NCBI GenBank assembly: GCA_013360825.1
Contig: JABWAY010000001.1
Span: 1-42,666, forward strand
Source of the DNA: Candidatus Brocadiia bacterium
GTDB lineage: Bacteria > Planctomycetota > MHYJ01 > WSZJ01
Length of the DNA stretch: 42,666 nt
Direction of reading: 5' to 3'
Below are positions 913-13,554 of this stretch, piece after piece. Every line of letters starts with the position of its first letter. Position 1 is the first letter of the stretch. Both the position numbers and the translations under genes were made by a program. Below the pieces are notes generated by a model. The model saw only the letters and a program-made list of their open reading frames with translations. It was not told the origin of the DNA and did not search any database.

Positions 913-2115
913 TCAGGACACCAGCCTCAGCAGCATCGCGATCGCTGCCCGCGCACGACGACGCTTCACCTCGATCTCCAGCCTCTCCTTCCCGAACTCC
1001 AGGATCTCGTCGTACCCGTTGGCGTAGGGGAGGGGGAAGTCCACGACATGGTGCGGCGTCACCCCCACCCCCTCCAGCTTCTCACCCTTCGTGTAGAACT
1101 GCGCGTTCTGGACCGGCACGAGCAGGCAGGAACCGTCGGACAGCTCCACAAACGTCGACCCCAGCACCGCCCCCTCCGTCGTCCGCCCGACCGTCGGGCC
1201 CAGGTCCTCGTCCATGAAGACCCAGGTGAAAATCTCCTTCGCCGACCGCGACCGGTCGTCCACGAGCAGCACCACGGGGCGGTCCCAGGCGCCGGTCCGG
1301 AACAGCCCGAGAATCGCATTCATCACCAGCGGCGAACCCCCGCGCCCACGGATGTCGAGGAGAAGGCCGTCGCAGTCCTCGAACTTCTCCGTCATCGCCT
1401 TCGAGACCGTGCCGTAAATGAGCGGCGTCAGGAAATGCCAGGTGTGCACGTACCCGAACTTCATCCCGCCATGCCGGATCACGCGCACCGAGTTCTCCGA
1501 GGCCTGCACCATCGAGATCGGCTCGGGCCGGATCGTCACCGTCCGGGACCGCCCCTTCTTCGACTCGATCACCAGCTCCACCGGCTCCTTCCCGTCCGCC
1601 GCCACGTACCAGAGCGGCGGCCACGGGAGCCCGGGGTCGCTTCCCGCCGCCGTCAGCCGCTCCGATGCCTTCGCCTCCACCCCGGCGATCCGGACCAGCC
1701 GGTCGCCGCGCCGGATCCCGGCCTTGTCCGCAGGACCGCCTTCCAGGAGGTTGCGCACAAACAGCTTCCCGTCGACCTCCACCGCCTCAAACCCCACCTG
1801 CGGGGTCGGCTTTCCGCCCATCTCCGGCACGAAATGATCCTGGTAGGCCTCCTTCGGGATCAGCACCAGGTGCGAGACCCCCAGCTCCCCGAGCATCCGG
1901 TTCGTGATCCCGATCAGCTCCTCCTGCGTCTTCGCCTTCTTCGCCAGCGGCCGGTACTCCTCCTTGAGCGCCGCCCAGTCGCGGCCGTTCATCGTCTTGT
2001 CGTAGAACCGGTCGCGCGTCGTCCGCCACGCCTCGTCGAACGTCTTGATCCTGGGCTTTTCGGCAAGGGCGGGAAGTGCCAGTGCTGCGGCGAGGACGAC
2101 GGTCAGAAGGCGCAT
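913..2115 (-). CDS. S41 family C-terminal processing peptidase with PDZ domain, secreted
   Basis: Within track ORF 913..2238. The internal ATG at 2115 gives the signal peptide MRLLTVVLAAALALPALA. PDZ-like stretch GGPADKAGIRRGDRLVRIAG. S41 signatures DIRGRGGSP and VDDRSRSAKEIF (Ser/Lys dyad region). Confidence 0.85.
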   Translation of the reverse strand: MRLLTVVLAAALALPALAEKPRIKTFDEAWRTTRDRFYDKTMNGRDWAALKEEYRPLAKKAKTQEELIGITNRMLGELGVSHLVLIPKEAYQDHFVPEMGGKPTPQVGFEAVEVDGKLFVRNLLEGGPADKAGIRRGDRLVRIAGVEAKASERLTAAGSDPGLPWPPLWYVAADGKEPVELVIESKKGRSRTVTIRPEPISMVQASENSVRVIRHGGMKFGYVHTWHFLTPLIYGTVSKAMTEKFEDCDGLLLDIRGRGGSPLVMNAILGLFRTGAWDRPVVLLVDDRSRSAKEIFTWVFMDEDLGPTVGRTTEGAVLGSTFVELSDGSCLLVPVQNAQFYTKGEKLEGVGVTPHHVVDFPLPYANGYDEILEFGKERLEIEVKRRRARAAIAMLLRLVS

Positions 2116-2778
2116 CGGTCGTGTCTCCGTGGGTTCGTGCAGAGTGATACGGCTGTCGGGCCGGAATGATGGGTTCAGGCGGACGGGGGCAGGTGCGGGG
2201 TCAGGGCGGCAGGGAGAGGGCTCCCGGGCGTGGGACACCTCGGGACCCGGGTAGTGGGCCCCCGATCCCGGTGATCCGACCCCTCATCGCTTTCCCAGAA
2301 CCTTCCTGCCCTCCCCGTCGTCCAATCCCCACACCCTTACGGAGCCCCTCCCATGCGTCGTTTCGCCGGTCCGGCCCTTCTCCTCGCCCTCGCCGCCGGG
2401 GTCGCGCGCGCCGAGGATTCCACCGTTCTCGAGGGCCGTATCGACGCACTGCTCGGCCCCGATGTCGGCGCTTCGCGAGAAGCCGTGTTTCGACCGCGGC
2501 CGCGAACTGTGCCGTCGGATCGGGGAGAGGAAAGGGAAGTTCAGCCAGGTGGGGGAGAGCGAGGTTGGTCCGCGATCGGGGGAGGCTGAGCCCTGGGAGC
2601 GGAACCTGATGCGCGTGGAGGCCGTCGTAGAATCGGTCTTCATCTGGTAGGGCGGTCCTGCGCTCTCTGGCTCGGAGCTCATCAGCAGCCTGCGTCGTGC
2701 CGGCTCGCCTCCCGCCTGGAATGCGGTGACCGAGGACGCCTGGTGGGACGCCGGGCGGGCGGGGGAGCGCCCCGCCGC

Positions 2779-3426
2779 TCAGTACTTCACCGAGCACCCG
2801 TACGGCTTCGACTCGGTCACCGGCGCCGGCTTGCCCGACAGCACGGCGTCGAGCACCTCGACCACGTAGTTCCGGGCCCCGGCGATGTCCGCCGAATTCG
2901 CCGTCGGCCGGTCGTCGATCGCCCCGCCGTATACGATCGCCCCCTGCGGGTCGATCACCACCATCTGCGGCGTCGTCTTCGCGTCGTAGAGCCGGCCGAC
3001 CTTCCCGTCCACGTCCAGCAGCATCGCCGTCGGCGCGGCCCCGATCGATTTCAACGTCTCCGTCCACCCCGCCGGCTCCTGGTGCCCCTGCTTTCCGGGG
3101 GCCGATGAGCAGATCGAGAGCCAGACCACCCCCTTCCCCGCGTACGTCTTCTGAAGCCCCTGCATGTTCCCCGACCCGTAGTGCTTTTTCACGAACGGGC
3201 ACCCGTGGTTCACCCACTCCAGCACGACCCATTTCCCGCGATAGTCCGCCAGCGCGTGGGATTTCCCGGTGTTGTCGGGAAGCGAGAACGCCGGCGCGGC
3301 CGCGGCGGAGATGTTGTCCTGTGGGGCGGGGGGGGAAGTGGTGTTCCCATTTCCGTTCTCGGGCGACCCGCAGCCGGCGAGGAGGGCGGCGGACAGGGAG
3401 AGGGCGAGGGTGAGGGAGCGCGTCAT
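2779..3426 (-). CDS. thioredoxin-fold (redoxin/TlpA-like) lipoprotein
   Basis: Lipobox LLAGC after the signal sequence. Thioredoxin-fold core KWVVLEWVNHGCPFVKKHY and C-terminal YGCSVKY. The start overlaps the upstream gene's stop (ATGA at 3423-3426). Confidence 0.85.
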   Translation of the reverse strand: MTRSLTLALSLSAALLAGCGSPENGNGNTTSPPAPQDNISAAAAPAFSLPDNTGKSHALADYRGKWVVLEWVNHGCPFVKKHYGSGNMQGLQKTYAGKGVVWLSICSSAPGKQGHQEPAGWTETLKSIGAAPTAMLLDVDGKVGRLYDAKTTPQMVVIDPQGAIVYGGAIDDRPTANSADIAGARNYVVEVLDAVLSGKPAPVTESKPYGCSVKY

Positions 3427-4262
3427 CGGGGGGGCCTTTCAGGAGTGGTTGCGTCGATGGTCCAGGATGCCGTCGATCCGTCGAGATGGACGACGAGGAC
3501 ACCCCGGAGCCGGGTGACCGGTTCCTTCCGGCGCGGTGCCGGGAAGAGCCGGATGCGGAGGGCGACCGGGCTCGTCGGGTCGAACACGGCGGGCCTGGTT
3601 TCGTCGAGGGTGAGCGGGTCGGACGGGAAGAACTCGGCGGAGGAGCCCTCGAGTCCCTTCACGACCAGAACGATCCCCCCGGAAAATTCCTCCAGCGTCG
3701 CCGCTCCCGCGGGGAGTTCCTTCGGCAGCGACGCGCGCGCCGCGGCGAACGCGGCGGCGTGGGCCGGATCGGCGACCGGGGGGTCCTCCCGGATCTCCAC
3801 GCGCGCCTGGCAGGCGTCGCTTCCGGAGGTGCACGCTTCGTCGCTGCAGGCGACCCAGTGCACGGTCGCGCCGAGGATCGCGTCGCCGGCCGCCGCGCCG
3901 GCGGGGACCTGCAGGCTCACGGGGAGGAGGACTTCGCCCTCGTAGACGTAGGACACGAGCCCGTCCTGCACGAGGCGGTGCGGCGTCGGCCAGGCGATCG
4001 GGCCGGCGACCCAGCCTTCGGGCAGCTTCCAGTCCACGACCGGGGCGGCGCCGGAATCCCCCGGGTATTTCCAGTAGACGTGCCGTCCCGGCGCGAGCAC
4101 CAGCCTCACCCCGACAGACAGTTCCGTCCCCGGACGCGCGGTGGGGGTTTCGGCGATCAGCGCGGCCCGGCAGTCGGCGATCTTCGGCGCTGCATCCTGG
4201 GCGATCGCGGTGGAGCCCAGGGCCAGGACGAGGGCGGGGGCTGCGTGGCGCAATCGTTTCAC
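3423..4262 (-). CDS. DsbD N-terminal-domain-like (DsbC/ScsB-type) periplasmic thiol-disulfide protein
   Basis: Signal peptide MKRLRHAAPALVLALGSTAIAQ. GRHVYW and VHWVACSDEAC motifs are typical of the DsbD-alpha/DsbC-like fold. Translationally coupled to the thioredoxin-like gene downstream. Confidence 0.7.
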   Translation of the reverse strand: MKRLRHAAPALVLALGSTAIAQDAAPKIADCRAALIAETPTARPGTELSVGVRLVLAPGRHVYWKYPGDSGAAPVVDWKLPEGWVAGPIAWPTPHRLVQDGLVSYVYEGEVLLPVSLQVPAGAAAGDAILGATVHWVACSDEACTSGSDACQARVEIREDPPVADPAHAAAFAAARASLPKELPAGAATLEEFSGGIVLVVKGLEGSSAEFFPSDPLTLDETRPAVFDPTSPVALRIRLFPAPRRKEPVTRLRGVLVVHLDGSTASWTIDATTPERPPR

Positions 4263-4781: not shown

Positions 4782-4940
4782 CGCGCTTGGGCGGGGACTC
4801 CCCGGGGTGTACCGTCGGGGCAGCGCAGTGTCCGGCCCTCACTCGCTCCGGGGGACAGTCTGGAACCACCGAAGCCTCAACGGCTGAAATTCCTGCTCCG
4901 CGAGCTGTTCGGGAGCGCGCTCGCCGCGGGAGGAATTGCA

Positions 4941-5879
4941 TTGGCGGCATTCGGGTTCCTGGGGAATCCGGACGGCCCCCGGGGTGTCGTGGTGGGGTTC
5001 GGCCTCGTCCTGACCCTGGCGGGCGGTCTGCTCGCCGGGGGCGCGCGGGGAATCGCGCGGGCCGTGATCCGACGGTATCCCGGCGTCGCGAACTGGCCGT
5101 GGAGTCTGATCTCCGGGGCGGGTCTCTGCTCCGGAATCGGTCTCGTGATCATGCTCGTCAGCGTCTTCAACCCGGACGACGCGGCCTTTCCGTCCGGTCG
5201 CGGGGTGGCCTTCGCCGCGGGGCTGGTCTTTTTCCTCGCCGGCGTCGGCATCGCCGGTCCCACGCTCTCCCGCTCCGGCGACCGGGGTCCGCTCCAGGGG
5301 ATCGTCGTCGCCGCCCTCCTGACCGCATTCGCCGCAGTCCCCCTCGGGATCGCGATCCAGAGCCCCGATCTCCCCGTCGCGGTGGCCGCGGTCATCCTCG
5401 CTGGCGTCGCCCTGGCCGGCTGGGACTTCGTTCTGCGACGCTGGATCTCCCGGCTCGCCCTGCGGCTGCCGCTCTACGCCGGCGTGCTCCTCCTGGTGGG
5501 AGTCGGCGCCTCCCGCCTCACGAGGGCGACCGGACCGACCGCGCGAGGGCCCGTCTTCGAGCCTGTCACAGTCCGCGTGGAAGACCACTCCGTCGTGGCG
5601 GGGGAGCCCGTGAGGATTCATTTCGACCGGCCGCTCACGATGCCGTACGGATACCACTACCAGGTCGTCATCGTGCCCCGGGGCGTCGAGGTCTTCGCCT
5701 CAGGTCGCTGGTCCTATGTCAATCCCGGTGCCGCCTTCCTTGAGCTCGAGGCCCCCGACCAGCCGGGGGACTACGAAGTCCGTTTGAAACCGCACATGAA
5801 CGCCGTCCTTTCCTCGTGTCCCCTCTCCGTCCGCCCGGGCGAAACGCCGGAGCGGCCGCCGGATTTCGAGAAACGCTGA
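4941..5879 (+). CDS. multi-pass membrane protein with C-terminal beta-sandwich-like domain; start uncertain
   Basis: Track ORF 4332..5879, but its first ~200 aa are antisense to the IS630 remnant. The protein-like part begins near LKFLLRELFGSALAAGGIALAAF. Several hydrophobic helices are followed by VTVRVEDHSVVAGEPVRIHF...PGDYEVRLKP. There is no in-frame ATG or GTG just upstream. The first plausible starts are TTG 4941 or GTG 4989/4992. Confidence 0.55.
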   Translation: MAAFGFLGNPDGPRGVVVGFGLVLTLAGGLLAGGARGIARAVIRRYPGVANWPWSLISGAGLCSGIGLVIMLVSVFNPDDAAFPSGRGVAFAAGLVFFLAGVGIAGPTLSRSGDRGPLQGIVVAALLTAFAAVPLGIAIQSPDLPVAVAAVILAGVALAGWDFVLRRWISRLALRLPLYAGVLLLVGVGASRLTRATGPTARGPVFEPVTVRVEDHSVVAGEPVRIHFDRPLTMPYGYHYQVVIVPRGVEVFASGRWSYVNPGAAFLELEAPDQPGDYEVRLKPHMNAVLSSCPLSVRPGETPERPPDFEKR

Positions 5880-6168
5880 CGGGTCGGCGGCTGCGGATCC
5901 CGGGGCGATCGGGAGAAAAAAATATTTCCGCACCGCACCGAGGCCCGCGCGGGGAGTATTCTCGGGGGACGGCTTCGGGTTGTGCGCTGTGCAGGAATTT
6001 CGGCCCGAACCGTCTGAATTTCTGACGCCCGCAGTCCAGCGTCCCGCGCACCGCGGGGCGCGCAACTCCCTGTGTCATCCGCCCTTGCGGCGGATGGTCG
6101 GGCTCGACGCCGGGCGGGACCGGAATCTGCAACCTGTCGCTCCGCGCCCTTCCCGCGACACGATACCC

Positions 6169-8682
6169 ATGGAGATCCCCATGAATTCGATCCTTCGAAG
6201 TTGCGTCACGCTGACCTGGGCGCTGCGACTCGCCACGTTCGCCGCGGCGATCCTGGTCTGCGCCGCCTCGCTTCCCGCGCAGGATCCCGCGCCGGGGATC
6301 GACCCCGAGTTCGCGGCGCGCGAGGACCTGAAGCAGGCGCGCCGCCAGGTGGAGATGTGGCAGGAGATCCGCCGGGAGCATGCGAAACGGCGGGATGCGG
6401 CCGTCGCTCCGGCGGCACAGGCGGGGAAAGCGTATGAGACGGCGCGAGCGGAGCGCGAGCTCGCAGATCGGATCGACTCGGCGCTGCGCAACCCGGAAGC
6501 GAACCCTTCGGACAAGGTCAAGCGGTTGCTGGCGCACATCAAGAGTGTCGAGGACGATCTGGAGCGCCTCCGCACCACTCTCAAGGAGCGGCCGGGGCAC
6601 ATGGACACGGCGATGGCGCTGGGAGCCACGGCGAACTATCTGGAGCGGCTGTACGCGAAGCGCGACGGGCTGCTGAACGGGACGGGGGAGGAACGGGTCC
6701 GGCGCGAGGAGTGGAAGAAGGCGGCGGCCGAGGTGGCGCAGCGCAAGTTTGATGCGTACTGGGACGCCCGCGGGACGTGGTACCGGGCTTCGAACGAGCT
6801 CGCGTCCCTGCAGCGCCTGGTCGACGCGGACGACGCGGAGCTCGCGAAGGCGGAGGCCGCGCTGCTGGCGCTCGAGGTCGATGTGCTGGAGCGGTTCCGG
6901 AATGCGCCGAGGCCGCATCTCCAGCGGGCGTCTGCCTCGGCAGGCGGCGCGGTCGTGTACGACGCGAGCTGGGTTTCCGAGGAGGAAGTCCTCGACGAAC
7001 GGATCCGCTTCATGAGCAGGGCCGTGATCGCGCAGGCCGCCGAAATCGGCGTGCAGACGCGCCGGAGGGACAACGTTCTCGACGAGTACATCGCGGCGAG
7101 CAATGAGGCGATCGCGGCGATTCAGGCTTACGAGAGCGCGATCTGGACCCAGGCGTACCGGCAGATCGGGATCGACCTCCTCGACTGTGCCGTCTCTCTC
7201 GCCCTCGATGCGAAGGACGGCGGGGTGGCCGGCCTCGCCGTGGGGACCGGCGTGGAACTCGCGCACAAGCTCTACGAATGGGGCTCCGGGGACGTCGGCC
7301 GGAGGTATGACCTGCCCGCCTCCGGCGCGGCGGGCCCGCCTCCCGCGCACGACCCGACGACGTATGTGGGGGAGGCCGGGAAAGAAGCGATCAAGAGCGC
7401 GATCAAGGCCGGGCTCAAGGGGTTCATCGAGGGGACGCGTGCGGGGGCGGCGGACTACCGCCGGCTGAACGTCGCCCAGCCGCTGATCGAGGAGCTGTGG
7501 GTCGTGCTCAAGCGCCGCGTGATCTTCAACAACAGGGTCACGGAGGAGGCGATCGTCGTGGTCTTCCGGAAGACGTCGGAGACGCTCATCGTGCGGTCGA
7601 TGAAGGACCGCGTGAAGGGGGCGATGAATGCGTTCAGGGAGGGGCTGAAGAAGGGTCTCGTGGACGCGAAGGTGCTTCGCAGCATCGGGCGTTCGATGGC
7701 GCAGGCGGCCGTGAAGAACTTCATCCAGGAGATGGCCCGGTCCGAGCGCCTGCAGGCCTGGTACGAGTTTGCCGAGAAGGACGCCATCGCGCTCGAGATC
7801 TACCGGCAGATGCGCCAGGAGAGCAATCTCCTGCAGTTCGAGAAACTGCAGCTGGAGGCCTATCAGGAATACCTGCGCGAGCTCATGGCCGAACGGGCGC
7901 GGCTCAGCGGAACGCGCCGCCTCCGTTTCGACCGCGACGAGGCGGTTCCTGCCACCGCCCGCGCAGGGGACGGGTCGGTGGAGCTCGACCTCCGGCTGTC
8001 GTTCTCGAGGCCGGTGGAGACGGTGAGGGTGAAGGTCAACGGCGCCGAGATTGTCGGGTCGATCGGAGCGACGGAGTGGTCCGGAAAGGCGCGGCTGGCG
8101 GCCGGGATCGCCGAGGCCGCACTCTCCGTGGAGGCCGTGGACAGCCTCTCCCGGCAGGGAATCGACGCCGATCCCCACACGGTCCCGCAGTACAACACGG
8201 GGAATGACCGCTGGTCGGGATGGGAGAGGGGACCGGACAACACGCACACCGTCCGGCTGGGCGAGCGCAAGCCGGGCGTCTCCATCGTGCTGCTGATCGA
8301 CTGCTCGGGAAGCATGGGTGAGCACGGGCGGCTCAACAGTGCGAAAACGGCCGCGCGGAATGTCCTGAACCCCGACTCGCTCGGACCCGACGACGATGTC
8401 GCGCTCTGGACGTTTTCCGGCTCCGAGGCGCAGTTGCGCGTGCCCTTCACGTCGGATCCGGCCCGCGTCGTGGCCGCAGTCGACGCCCTGGGTGCCGACG
8501 GTGCGACCCCCCTGGCGCTCGGGATCTCCCGGTCGGGGGACTACCTGCTCTCCGTCGGCCGGAACCGGAAGAAGGTCCTGATCGTGCTCTCCGACGGCGA
8601 GGAGACGATGAACGGAAATCCCTTCGAGGCGATGCGCCTGCTCCGTGAACGTGGCGCCGTGGTCAGGGAGGGCGGCCGATGA
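6169..8682 (+). CDS. secreted/anchored long coiled-coil protein with C-terminal vWA domain (MIDAS intact, domain apparently truncated)
   Basis: Within ORF 5980..8682. ATG 6169 (or 6181) precedes the signal/anchor SILRSCVTLTWALRLATFAAAILVCAASLPAQ. About 700 aa are heptad-rich and charged. The vWA part is VSIVLLIDCSGSMG (DxSxS at 8299-8313), ADGATPL and LIVLSDGEET. The stop TGA overlaps the next ATG (ATGA at 8679-8682). Confidence 0.8.
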   Translation: MEIPMNSILRSCVTLTWALRLATFAAAILVCAASLPAQDPAPGIDPEFAAREDLKQARRQVEMWQEIRREHAKRRDAAVAPAAQAGKAYETARAERELADRIDSALRNPEANPSDKVKRLLAHIKSVEDDLERLRTTLKERPGHMDTAMALGATANYLERLYAKRDGLLNGTGEERVRREEWKKAAAEVAQRKFDAYWDARGTWYRASNELASLQRLVDADDAELAKAEAALLALEVDVLERFRNAPRPHLQRASASAGGAVVYDASWVSEEEVLDERIRFMSRAVIAQAAEIGVQTRRRDNVLDEYIAASNEAIAAIQAYESAIWTQAYRQIGIDLLDCAVSLALDAKDGGVAGLAVGTGVELAHKLYEWGSGDVGRRYDLPASGAAGPPPAHDPTTYVGEAGKEAIKSAIKAGLKGFIEGTRAGAADYRRLNVAQPLIEELWVVLKRRVIFNNRVTEEAIVVVFRKTSETLIVRSMKDRVKGAMNAFREGLKKGLVDAKVLRSIGRSMAQAAVKNFIQEMARSERLQAWYEFAEKDAIALEIYRQMRQESNLLQFEKLQLEAYQEYLRELMAERARLSGTRRLRFDRDEAVPATARAGDGSVELDLRLSFSRPVETVRVKVNGAEIVGSIGATEWSGKARLAAGIAEAALSVEAVDSLSRQGIDADPHTVPQYNTGNDRWSGWERGPDNTHTVRLGERKPGVSIVLLIDCSGSMGEHGRLNSAKTAARNVLNPDSLGPDDDVALWTFSGSEAQLRVPFTSDPARVVAAVDALGADGATPLALGISRSGDYLLSVGRNRKKVLIVLSDGEETMNGNPFEAMRLLRERGAVVREGGR

Positions 8683-12664: not shown

Positions 12665-13057
12665 TCAGGGATCCCGCGGCGCGGGCGCCAGGCCGTAAAG
12701 CAGCGTGCCGCCGACCAGCCCGGCCAGCGTCGCCAGCGCGTAGAGCTTGCCTTCGCCCAACTGGGCGAGCGCGGTGCCGGGTCAGGCACCGGTGAGCGCC
12801 CATCCCGCGCCGAACAGCGCTCCGGCGGCCAGCGTCCAGCGATGGGCCGGTTTTGTTCTCACTTCGTGCGCCCGCCCCGACCGGCGCAGGGCGAAGAGCC
12901 CGAGGGCGGAGGTCGCGATCGCGGCTCCCATCACCCCCATGATGTGGAAGTCCTGGAACCGGAACATCCGGGTGATCGCGTCGTAGTCGGTCGCGCGGGA
13001 CTGATGCAGGACGTACCCGAAAGCGACCCCGAACAGCAGCGTGACGAGGCGGTTCAT
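12665..13057 (-). CDS. YeeE/YedE-partner (DUF6691-type) sulfur-transport membrane protein with in-frame TGA (candidate Sec) at 12782-12784
   Basis: Track ORF 12782..13057 ends ...ALFGAGWALTGA*. The same frame continues for 38 codons, PGTALAQLGEGKLYALATLAGLVGGTLLYGLAPAPRDP, to TGA 12665-12667. The joined sequence FGAGWALTGA-[TGA]-PG matches the family signature FG.GW.L.G.CPG, with TGA at the Cys. Confidence 0.65.
12753..12768 (-). promoter_or_regulatory. candidate SECIS-like hairpin downstream of TGA 12782-12784
   Basis: The mRNA reads UCGCCC-AGUU-GGGCGA: a 6-bp stem with a tetraloop containing G and U. The stem begins 14 nt after the UGA. Confidence 0.4.
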
Positions 13058-13554
13058 GCGAACCTCCCCGCGAGCCAGAACACCCCGTTGACGGCCGCCA
13101 CACCGGCGGCCATGAACCCGATCGTCGCCAGGAGACTCCCCCTGGACCCCTGGGCGAGCCCGACGATCGAGTGCCCGCTCGTTCAGCCCCCCGCCCAGCG
13201 GGCGCCGTACCCCGCGAGCGTGCCGCCGACGAACAGGAACGCCAGCCGGACGACCGGATGGCCGCTGATCCCGCTGTCAAAGTCCCCCATCGACGTGACC
13301 CACCCGACCTTCCCCGCCAGCGCCGCCCCGAGGAGCCCGCCGAGCGGGATCCCCGCGATGAACCAGATCCGCCAGGGGGCCTTGTAAGCGCTCTGCTGGA
13401 AATACCGGATCCGCGGGGCGATCCTGGCGCAGAGCCCTCCGATCCCGGTCGACACGCCGACCGGCTTCCCGGTCGCAAACGCAAACGCGGTCACGATCAG
13501 TCCGATCGCGGACCCGGCGACCCACCACGGCCAGGGTTCGGATAGCCATTTCAT
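13054..13554 (-). CDS. YeeE/YedE family sulfur-transport membrane protein with in-frame TGA (candidate Sec) at 13183-13185
   Basis: Track ORF 13183..13554 ends ...GYGARWAGG*. The frame continues for 42 codons, TSGHSIVGLAQGSRGSLLATIGFMAAGVAAVNGVFWLAGRFA, to TGA 13054-13056, which overlaps the next gene's ATG (ATGA). The joined GG-[TGA]-TSGH...SL.AT..FM matches the short YeeE/YedE signature G.GCTSGH...RSL.AT..FM. GGGAGG RBS about 10 nt upstream of ATG 13554. Confidence 0.65.
13117..13171 (-). promoter_or_regulatory. candidate SECIS-like extended stem-loop downstream of TGA 13183-13185
   Basis: In mRNA sense, CUCGAUCGUCG pairs with CGACGAUCGGG: 9 Watson-Crick pairs plus one U.G and one C-G. This encloses an upper hairpin CCAGGGG-GAGU-CUCCUGG. 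The upper hairpin needs a G.U pair that would be an A.C mismatch on the opposite strand, so the structure is specific to the sense strand. Confidence 0.4.

Follow-up and report, generated by a model that had tools for sequence, protein, structure and literature searches.

The closest described relatives of the gene pair analysed here are the single-chain channel TsuA/YeeE (PDB 6LEO, 6LEP and 8J4C) and the two-gene system PmpA/PmpB (COG2391; Serratia pmpAB; Li et al. 2024, PMC11582611). Tanaka et al. (2020, PMC7449682) showed for TsuA that two essential residues, Cys91 and Cys293, line the narrow centre of a pore shaped like an hourglass. PmpB corresponds to the N-terminal half of such a channel with the Cys91 site and PmpA to the C-terminal half with the Cys293 site, and it was proposed that the two form a heterodimer (PMC11582611). 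The present work concerns a 42,666-bp stretch of DNA (hereafter the window), the whole contig of a metagenome-assembled genome (MAG) labelled 'Candidatus Brocadiae/Brocadiia bacterium' (Planctomycetota), and in it two adjacent genes, A and B, which on the evidence of sequence comparison are a PmpA/PmpB-type pair with the single conserved cysteine codon of each replaced by TGA. We estimate with a probability of about 0.87 that gene B encodes a selenoprotein with selenocysteine (Sec) at residue 92, the pore position equivalent to Cys91.

PmpA and PmpB are likewise encoded by two adjacent genes of about 130-170 codons. They carry cysteine at the Cys293 and Cys91 sites, whereas in genes A and B both of these single cysteine codons are UGA. 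Another difference is in the surroundings: in relatives the neighbours are a persulfide dioxygenase-rhodanese fusion and TauE, whereas the genes flanking the pair in the window are not sulfur genes. With TsuA/YeeE the two genes share the Pfam family PF04143 and the positions of Cys91 and Cys293, which are the predicted Sec positions here. TsuA is a single chain of about 330 amino acids with nine helices and a third cysteine (Cys22), whereas gene B is half-size and has Thr at the Cys22 position, and no YeeD/TsuB partner gene is adjacent to the pair.

Predicted selenoproteins of this family have already been catalogued. The catalogued YeeE/YedE (thiosulfate transporter) selenoprotein belongs to PF04143, has the motif GUxSG and contains one Sec (e.g. 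WP_012471001.1; PMC9312934, PMC13188914); five genes in five organisms were listed in a supplement table by Peng et al. (2016, PMC5029168). This one supplement table apart, the family is not discussed in the main texts of GOS 2008, Peng 2016 and deep-Sep 2025. Gene A (G-U-T-S-G) conforms to the GUxSG motif, as do its homologues (G-U-P-S-G in locus L099). In contrast, the catalogued protein has a single Sec and no partner listed, whereas the site of gene B lies in the other half of the channel, and its context, G-A-U-P-G-T, does not conform to GUxSG. YedE/FdhT, a putative selenium transporter (TIGR04112, NF033796) that has been linked to selenium metabolism by comparative genomics (PMC5322559), is a distant member of the same superfamily as gene B and is not itself a selenoprotein. 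DUF6691 is not mentioned in the literature searched, and neither Sec in the PmpB half nor a pair with Sec in both members was found described there. A second site, G-[A/T]-U-P-G-T, in the PmpB/DUF6691 half would be added to a selenoprotein family listed so far with one. This site and the double-Sec pair appear to be undescribed, and an unrecognised pair may possibly exist beside WP_012471001.1; a homology search seeded with gene A of Syntrophaceae returned only Cys-type proteins of about 174 amino acids, and WP_012471001.1 was not among them.

The gene pair and its pore-cysteine positions

The features of gene B, all on the minus strand, are the following.

12665..13057, minus strand: gene B, full read-through open reading frame (ORF); PmpB/DUF6691-type half-size YeeE/YedE subunit of 130 amino acids with predicted Sec at residue 92
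12782..12784, minus strand: in-frame UGA of gene B, read here as Sec, at the invariant Cys of G-[A/T]-C-P-G-T
12665..12781, minus strand: tail of gene B beyond the UGA, 38 codons followed by the presumed true stop TGA 12665..12667; encodes the last transmembrane segment

Gene B opens with ATG 13057..13055 and runs for 91 codons, ending ...ALFGAGWALTGA, up to TGA 12784..12782. Past this codon the frame stays open for exactly 38 codons (PGTALAQLGEGKLYALATLAGLVGGTLLYGLAPAPRDP) and ends at TGA 12667..12665. The GenBank entry comprises only the first 91 amino acids (hypothetical protein NUN47206.1). By itself, a run of 38 open codons carries no weight, because DNA of 69% G+C holds many spurious long ORFs. 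What goes beyond chance is the place of the TGA on a Cys column, the alignment of the tail with homologues, the selection acting on the tail and the absence of any expected chance match for the scan pattern, all described below.

Gene A, which lies immediately upstream, is built in the same way.

13054..13554, minus strand: gene A, full read-through ORF; PmpA-type partner of 166 amino acids with predicted Sec at residue 124
13183..13185, minus strand: in-frame UGA of gene A in the motif G-G-U-T-S-G-H; equivalent of TsuA/YeeE Cys293
13054..13067, minus strand: gene junction; GGAGG Shine-Dalgarno sequence at 13063..13067, 5 nt ahead of the ATG of gene B

Its first 123 codons (13554..13186), ending ...GYGARWAGG, are followed by TGA 13185..13183, and beyond it the frame runs TSGHSIVGLAQG... 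for 42 codons to TGA 13056..13054. Here, too, the GenBank entry consists of the 123 amino acids alone (YeeE/YedE protein NUN47207.1). The ATG of gene B (13055..13057) shares the sequence ATGA with the distal stop of gene A (13054..13056), a layout typical of translational coupling; in Cys-type pairs the two genes likewise overlap by 4 nt or directly abut. Given this overlap, translational coupling of genes A and B is probable. Both interruptions had been pointed out in an earlier note on this DNA, and re-translation reproduced its coordinates and sequences for both genes.

For family searches Cys was placed at the TGA positions of both genes. Gene B matched Sulf_transp (PF04143) with 52 bits and DUF6691 (PF20398) with 30.3 bits, the cut-off being 27 bits in each case, and covered positions 8-103 of the 310 of the Sulf_transp profile and residues 6-106 of 6LEO. 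Gene A scored 58.7 bits with Sulf_transp and covered its C-terminal half (profile positions 171-308 of 310; 6LEO residues 192-318). The two are thus adjacent half-size genes, gene B corresponding to the N-terminal half, which has the Cys91 site, and gene A to the C-terminal half, which has the Cys293 site. Neither gene came near the NCBIfam cut-offs for TsuA or those for the YedE selenium transporter. Gene B obtained 28.9 and 18.8 bits with the TsuA equivalogs NF052577 and NF041049 (cut-offs 400 and 645), and 32.9 and 24.1 bits with the YedE models TIGR04112 and NF033796 (cut-offs 200 and 350); with 32.9 bits against a cut-off of 200, it is not a member of YedE/FdhT.

When gene B was aligned with full-length homologues, the TGA column was Cys in 20 of 20, and the tail aligned with their last transmembrane segment. 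The same column was Cys in the 110 Cys-type proteins used for the tree described below. Residue 92 of gene B aligned with Cys91, and residue 124 of gene A with Cys293, of Spirochaeta thermophila TsuA (6LEO); the C91A mutant structure, 6LEP, differs from 6LEO at the residue aligned to residue 92. The claim of the earlier note that TGA takes the place of a conserved Cys in gene B is therefore borne out by the alignment, which puts the TGA on the Cys column and not elsewhere. The signature that it gave, FG.GW.L.G.CPGP, is close to the family consensus around the site, FG.GWAL.GACPGT. The term 'catalytic-type' for the cysteine was its own; the TsuA equivalents are established as pore-lining and essential (PMC7449682).

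Conservation of the UGA codon and the hairpin downstream of it

Homologues carrying the TGA were searched with the pattern GGN TGG GSN YTN NNN GGN NNN TGA CCN GGN MCN, for which no chance match is expected in the window. The scan of metagenomes yielded 70 loci, among them 40 true homologues with the TGA. Species-representative genomes of GTDB yielded 42 loci with 15 true homologues from at least five phyla; these 15 MAGs belong to Planctomycetota (six, including the closest relative, L095), Rokuibacteriota (two), Acidobacteriota (two), Syntrophaceae (one) and Bacteroidia (one), three being unclassified. In all of the approximately 55 homologues the TGA was followed by an open frame encoding PGTxLAQxGE[G/L]K or a recognisable variant of it, and TGA and intact tail were kept down to about 50% protein identity. 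A scan of viral contigs for Cys-type controls gave no matches.

The same state was found in independent data. The identical truncated 91-residue product was called on 28 contigs (NCBI and Logan assemblies), and the independent run SRR10064596 (L002) had the same TGAs as the window. The protein database contained two further truncated relatives of 91 residues, one of which (P0025) is 70% identical; in the contig of P0025 (L001) both TGAs were present and both downstream frames were intact. Over 147 pairs, median dN/dS was 0.34 in the stretch of 29 codons that follows the TGA of gene B and 0.43 in the 29 codons preceding it. Purifying selection thus acts on the tail as it does on the upstream part, and the tail is therefore translated. 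In a rough neighbour-joining (NJ) tree the TGA-bearing genes fell into eight clades among Cys-type genes, corresponding to at least seven changes of state, and this distribution shows that the TGA persisted in several lineages. Such scattered switching between Cys and Sec fits the counts of Sec and Cys homologues published for many selenoprotein families.

Several TGA-bearing homologues deviate from the common form. In four metagenome loci (L048, L049, L050 and L060) only the last few codons before the TGA and the tail of gene B were found, with unrelated sequence upstream and no gene A; they resemble leftovers of a Sec-type gene B that has lost its 5' part. A longer gene B with about 80 extra C-terminal residues was seen in Syntrophaceae and relatives (L017, L067, L099 and L100), together with the third type of hairpin described below. 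L096 (the Bacteroidia MAG) and two A+T-rich contigs (L043 and L062) contain divergent homologues with the TGA in the context G-x-U-P-G-P.

[quoted passage not shown] A candidate of this kind is located within the tail of gene B.

12753..12768, minus strand: candidate SECIS hairpin of gene B, UCGCCC-AGUU-GGGCGA; 6-bp stem, 4-nt loop with GU

The hairpin spans nt 14-29 after the UGA, its loop begins 19 nt after this codon and its computed energy is -10.2 kcal/mol, values that lie within all four limits; two further outer pairs lengthen it to 12749..12772. L002 was identical to the window over this stretch. A perfect hairpin of 6-7 bp with a loop of 3-4 nt and G in the first two loop positions was present in 36 of 37 distinct Sec-type sequences, and a comparable one in one of the seven Cys-type genes for which DNA was retrieved.

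Three different sequence solutions were found for a hairpin at the same place: CUCGCCC-AG[G/U][U/C]-GGGCGAG at 19 nt (first kind, to which that of the window belongs), UCA[A/G]CUC-GGN-GAG[U/C]UGA at 24 nt (second kind) and GCCCUC-GGU-GAGGGC at 24 nt (third kind). When the second and third kinds were aligned, 98% of the cells were paired and three of the seven pairs had changes on both sides; the observed covariation was reached by none of 500 shuffles. At pair 24-34, G-C occurred in 14 sequences, A-U in four and C-G in three, the switch from G-C to A-U being synonymous on both sides (CAG to CAA for Gln, CUG to UUG for Leu). The first kind hardly varies, and its support therefore comes from conservation at synonymous sites and from the contrast with Cys-type genes. 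Two of the latter, L120 and L121, encode the identical peptide ALAQLGEGK with other synonymous codons that do not pair. In a third (L074, 6288-6335) the peptide is LAQLGELK, typical of the second kind, and its codons, CAA UUG GGU GAA CUC AAA, cannot pair; this gene may have reverted from Sec to Cys and lost its SECIS.

No hairpin agreeing with the bSECIS consensus was found in L096, and plain folding of L043 and L062 did not reveal an evident one; either these divergent homologues use a different class of SECIS, or their TGA is not a Sec codon. Another hairpin, with the UGA in its loop (GGUGCC-UGACCC-GGCACC, 6 bp, listed at 12785-12802, minus strand), was discarded: relatives do not conserve it, and it probably arises from the Ala (GCC) and Gly (GGC) codons.

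Readings of the in-frame UGA codons

In the mechanism that we propose, genes A and B would encode the halves of a PmpAB-type (split YeeE/YedE) heterodimeric membrane channel for reduced sulfur species, the substrate being most likely thiosulfate or sulfane sulfur; the heterodimer, in which each subunit would have four transmembrane helices, is postulated after the proposal made for PmpAB (PMC11582611). The hairpin UCGCCC-AGUU-GGGCGA would act as a bacterial SECIS and recruit SelB with Sec-tRNA(Sec) to the UGA at 12784..12782, Sec would be inserted at residue 92 of gene B, and translation would continue over 38 codons, across the last transmembrane segment, as far as the stop at 12667..12665. 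Gene A would be decoded likewise at 13185..13183. The two Sec residues would stand in for the pore cysteines of TsuA/YeeE, that of gene B for Cys91 and that of gene A for Cys293, so that the narrowest part of the channel would carry a selenol(ate) and not a thiol.

The earlier note had also interpreted the UGA codons as Sec codons, and this interpretation has been strengthened by the UGA falling on the Cys column, by the conservation of TGA and tail and by the covarying bSECIS-type hairpin specific to the UGA forms. Its expectation that a pseudogene origin would be hard to reconcile with two interrupted genes agrees with a tail that is conserved across phyla and under purifying selection: in close and distant relatives with the same TGA (about 55 contigs) the downstream frame was intact and conserved and showed no decay.

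Several observations weigh against this interpretation. Genes selA, selB and selD and a tRNA-Sec were not found in the 42,666-bp contig (Pfam on about 35 ORFs, Rfam, ARAGORN). That the residue at the UGA is Sec and not another one is what we infer from the comparisons above, and the Sec machinery of the organism is assumed. The stem of the first hairpin kind varies solely by GAG/GAA at the basal pair (7 or 6 bp); the 6-bp stem of the window itself is without covariation, which comes from sister lineages. The peptide LAQ-GE partly predisposes its codons to pair, and the Cys-type gene L076 has a comparable hairpin of -10.7 kcal/mol. Folding energies of segments of the window were unexceptional in comparison with shuffled sequences (z = 0.5 to -2.1), and the argument for the hairpin therefore rests on the comparative data. 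Finally, the SECIS of gene A is poorly defined in the clade of the window.

The most serious competitor of Sec insertion, which we nevertheless consider unlikely, is read-through of the UGA without selenium, with a near-cognate or suppressor tRNA inserting Trp, Cys or Gly. UGA followed by C is the weakest termination context in bacteria. The base after the UGA was C in all gene B sequences, and a leaky UGA-C with a downstream hairpin, in a contig where Sec machinery was not found, would account for the conserved tail too. What speaks for Sec is that the UGA stands exactly at the Cys of every homologue, and such alternation was used to recognise the catalogued selenoproteins; moreover, loop size, position of G and spacing of the hairpin agree with the SelB-type SECIS consensus, and the family is already catalogued with selenoproteins. 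Inefficient read-through at two successive genes would also be costly. In E. coli YeeE the essential Cys could not be replaced even by Ser (PMC7449682), therefore Trp or Gly would probably inactivate the channel.

Less probable still, and contradicted by the comparative data, is that the genes are pseudogenes or encode true truncated proteins of 91 and 123 amino acids, with the downstream frames as untranslated remnants. The GenBank annotation ends at the TGAs, long open frames arise readily by chance at 69% G+C, and TGA is the normal stop codon of this genome: in the window, 11 of the 16 genes with Pfam support end in TGA, which excludes a genome-wide reassignment of TGA. Against truncation stand the same TGA with an intact tail in about 55 contigs from several phyla, the purifying selection on a tail that encodes a transmembrane segment of all full-length homologues, and the persistence of the TGA in several lineages, the Sec forms being spread over eight NJ clades; in addition, without translation of the tail of gene A there would be no coupling ATGA overlap. 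An error of sequencing or assembly in the MAG is scarcely credible. A single base separates TGA from TGC or TGT; however, the same truncated product occurs on 28 contigs, and the same TGAs were found in SRR10064596 and in dozens of unrelated assemblies.

If Sec insertion is accepted as the explanation, the pair would be a membrane channel of two subunits, both of which can contain Sec. It is found in Planctomycetota, Rokuibacteriota and Acidobacteriota, phyla that are unmentioned in the selenoprotein reviews PMC9312934 and PMC13188914. Both genes would be truncated in GenBank, and the same error must affect dozens of relatives; the scan patterns and the types of hairpin offer a direct way to locate and correct them. 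Natural alternation between Cys and Sec usually marks redox-active or nucleophilic cysteines. Its occurrence at the equivalents of Cys91 and Cys293 makes it directly testable whether the pore cysteines of the YeeE family have a chemical role or serve as hydrogen-bond donors. More speculatively, and with considerable doubt on our part, the channel may hand on sulfur or selenium through short-lived covalent chalcogen exchange (Se-S, Se-Se) and not simply by hydrogen bonding, the mode proposed for TsuA. If this were true, the Sec forms would be variants of high turnover or low substrate affinity, or dedicated importers of selenium species, and the order in which Sec appeared (the Cys91 site before the Cys293 site, see below) would mark the chemically most demanding step.

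States of the two subunits, gene A and genomic context

The states of the two subunits were compared in the loci in which both genes were visible, with the following result.

Gene A TGA, gene B TGA: 28 loci, including the window and its clade
Gene A TGC or TGT, gene B TGA: 19 loci; the soil lineage (L010, L107), L024, L096, L100 and L104 among them
Gene A Cys, gene B Cys: 6 loci, i.e. every Cys-type gene B locus with an intact gene A
Gene A TGA, gene B Cys: 0 loci, with only six Cys-type pairs examined

The states were associated (Fisher's exact p = 0.008, uncorrected for phylogeny and obtained with a biased sample). As a rule, the 'both subunits Cys or both Sec' raised in the earlier note does not hold: beside the 28 loci with Sec codons in both genes there are 19 in which a Sec-type gene B is paired with a Cys-type gene A with the motif GGCPSGH (L010, L012, L018, L020, L024, L034, L040, L041, L044-L046, L053, L064, L068, L072, L096, L100, L104 and L107). 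These 19 loci show that Sec in the PmpB half does not depend on Sec in the PmpA half, and the distribution suggests that the PmpB site was converted to Sec before the PmpA site. Both combinations occur among the loci with the longer gene B: in L099 gene A also has TGA (G-U-P-S-G), and in L067 and L100 it has TGT. L119 (2700-3000) was considered as a case of Sec in the partner with Cys in gene B and was rejected, its gene A being a mere C-terminal fragment (ASGHSIVGIAQG...LGG*); in this locus the pair was disrupted by rearrangement, and a Cys-type gene B follows the remnant of gene A.

Downstream of the UGA of gene A a different structure was seen in the clade of the window.

13116..13172, minus strand: candidate structured region 3' of the gene A UGA; 12-bp long-range stem with a G-rich apical part, assignment uncertain

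Counted from the U of the UGA, nt 14-25 pair with nt 59-70, the G-rich apex being variable within the clade. In eight clade members 93.8% of the cells were paired, with one compensatory pair; the value was reached by 48 of 500 shuffles, and the stem is partly common to Cys-type genes. The stem is real in this clade but weakly supported, and we do not claim it as a SECIS. In lineages with the second kind of gene B hairpin, gene A contains UCCUGGG-(5 nt)-CCC[A/G]GGG, a 7-bp hairpin 23 nt after the UGA, which was 100% paired in 17 sequences and showed one compensatory pair.

In the window the pair is flanked by an HlyD/ABC/FtsX efflux system upstream and a GH15 hydrolase downstream. In relatives of both the Cys and the Sec type it is preceded by a metallo-beta-lactamase-rhodanese fusion of the persulfide dioxygenase type and often followed by TauE, and in single relatives it adjoins an ArsR-type regulator or a SoxB-like protein. 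These sulfur-gene neighbours suggest traffic of thiosulfate, sulfite or sulfane sulfur.

Elsewhere in the window (2782-4262, minus strand), an AhpC/TSA-redoxin gene adjoins a gene with a DsbD_N domain; no in-frame TGA was seen in this thiol-redox pair. When the window was scanned for further TGAs lying inside a frame with coding signal before and after them, gene A alone was returned. Rfam at gathering thresholds and ARAGORN found no RNA in the window. A 94-nt tRNA-Gly(CCC) called by ARAGORN in L101 (3943-4036) had no Rfam tRNA match and was discarded as a false positive in G+C-rich DNA. In L104, a Rokuibacteriota MAG, a protein with a Tat signal, a metallophosphoesterase domain and a 5'-nucleotidase C-terminal domain (SoxB-like) is encoded just upstream of the Cys/Sec pair; its gene is located at about 1452-3138 on the minus strand of the record, which is 4863-6549 in the orientation of gene B.

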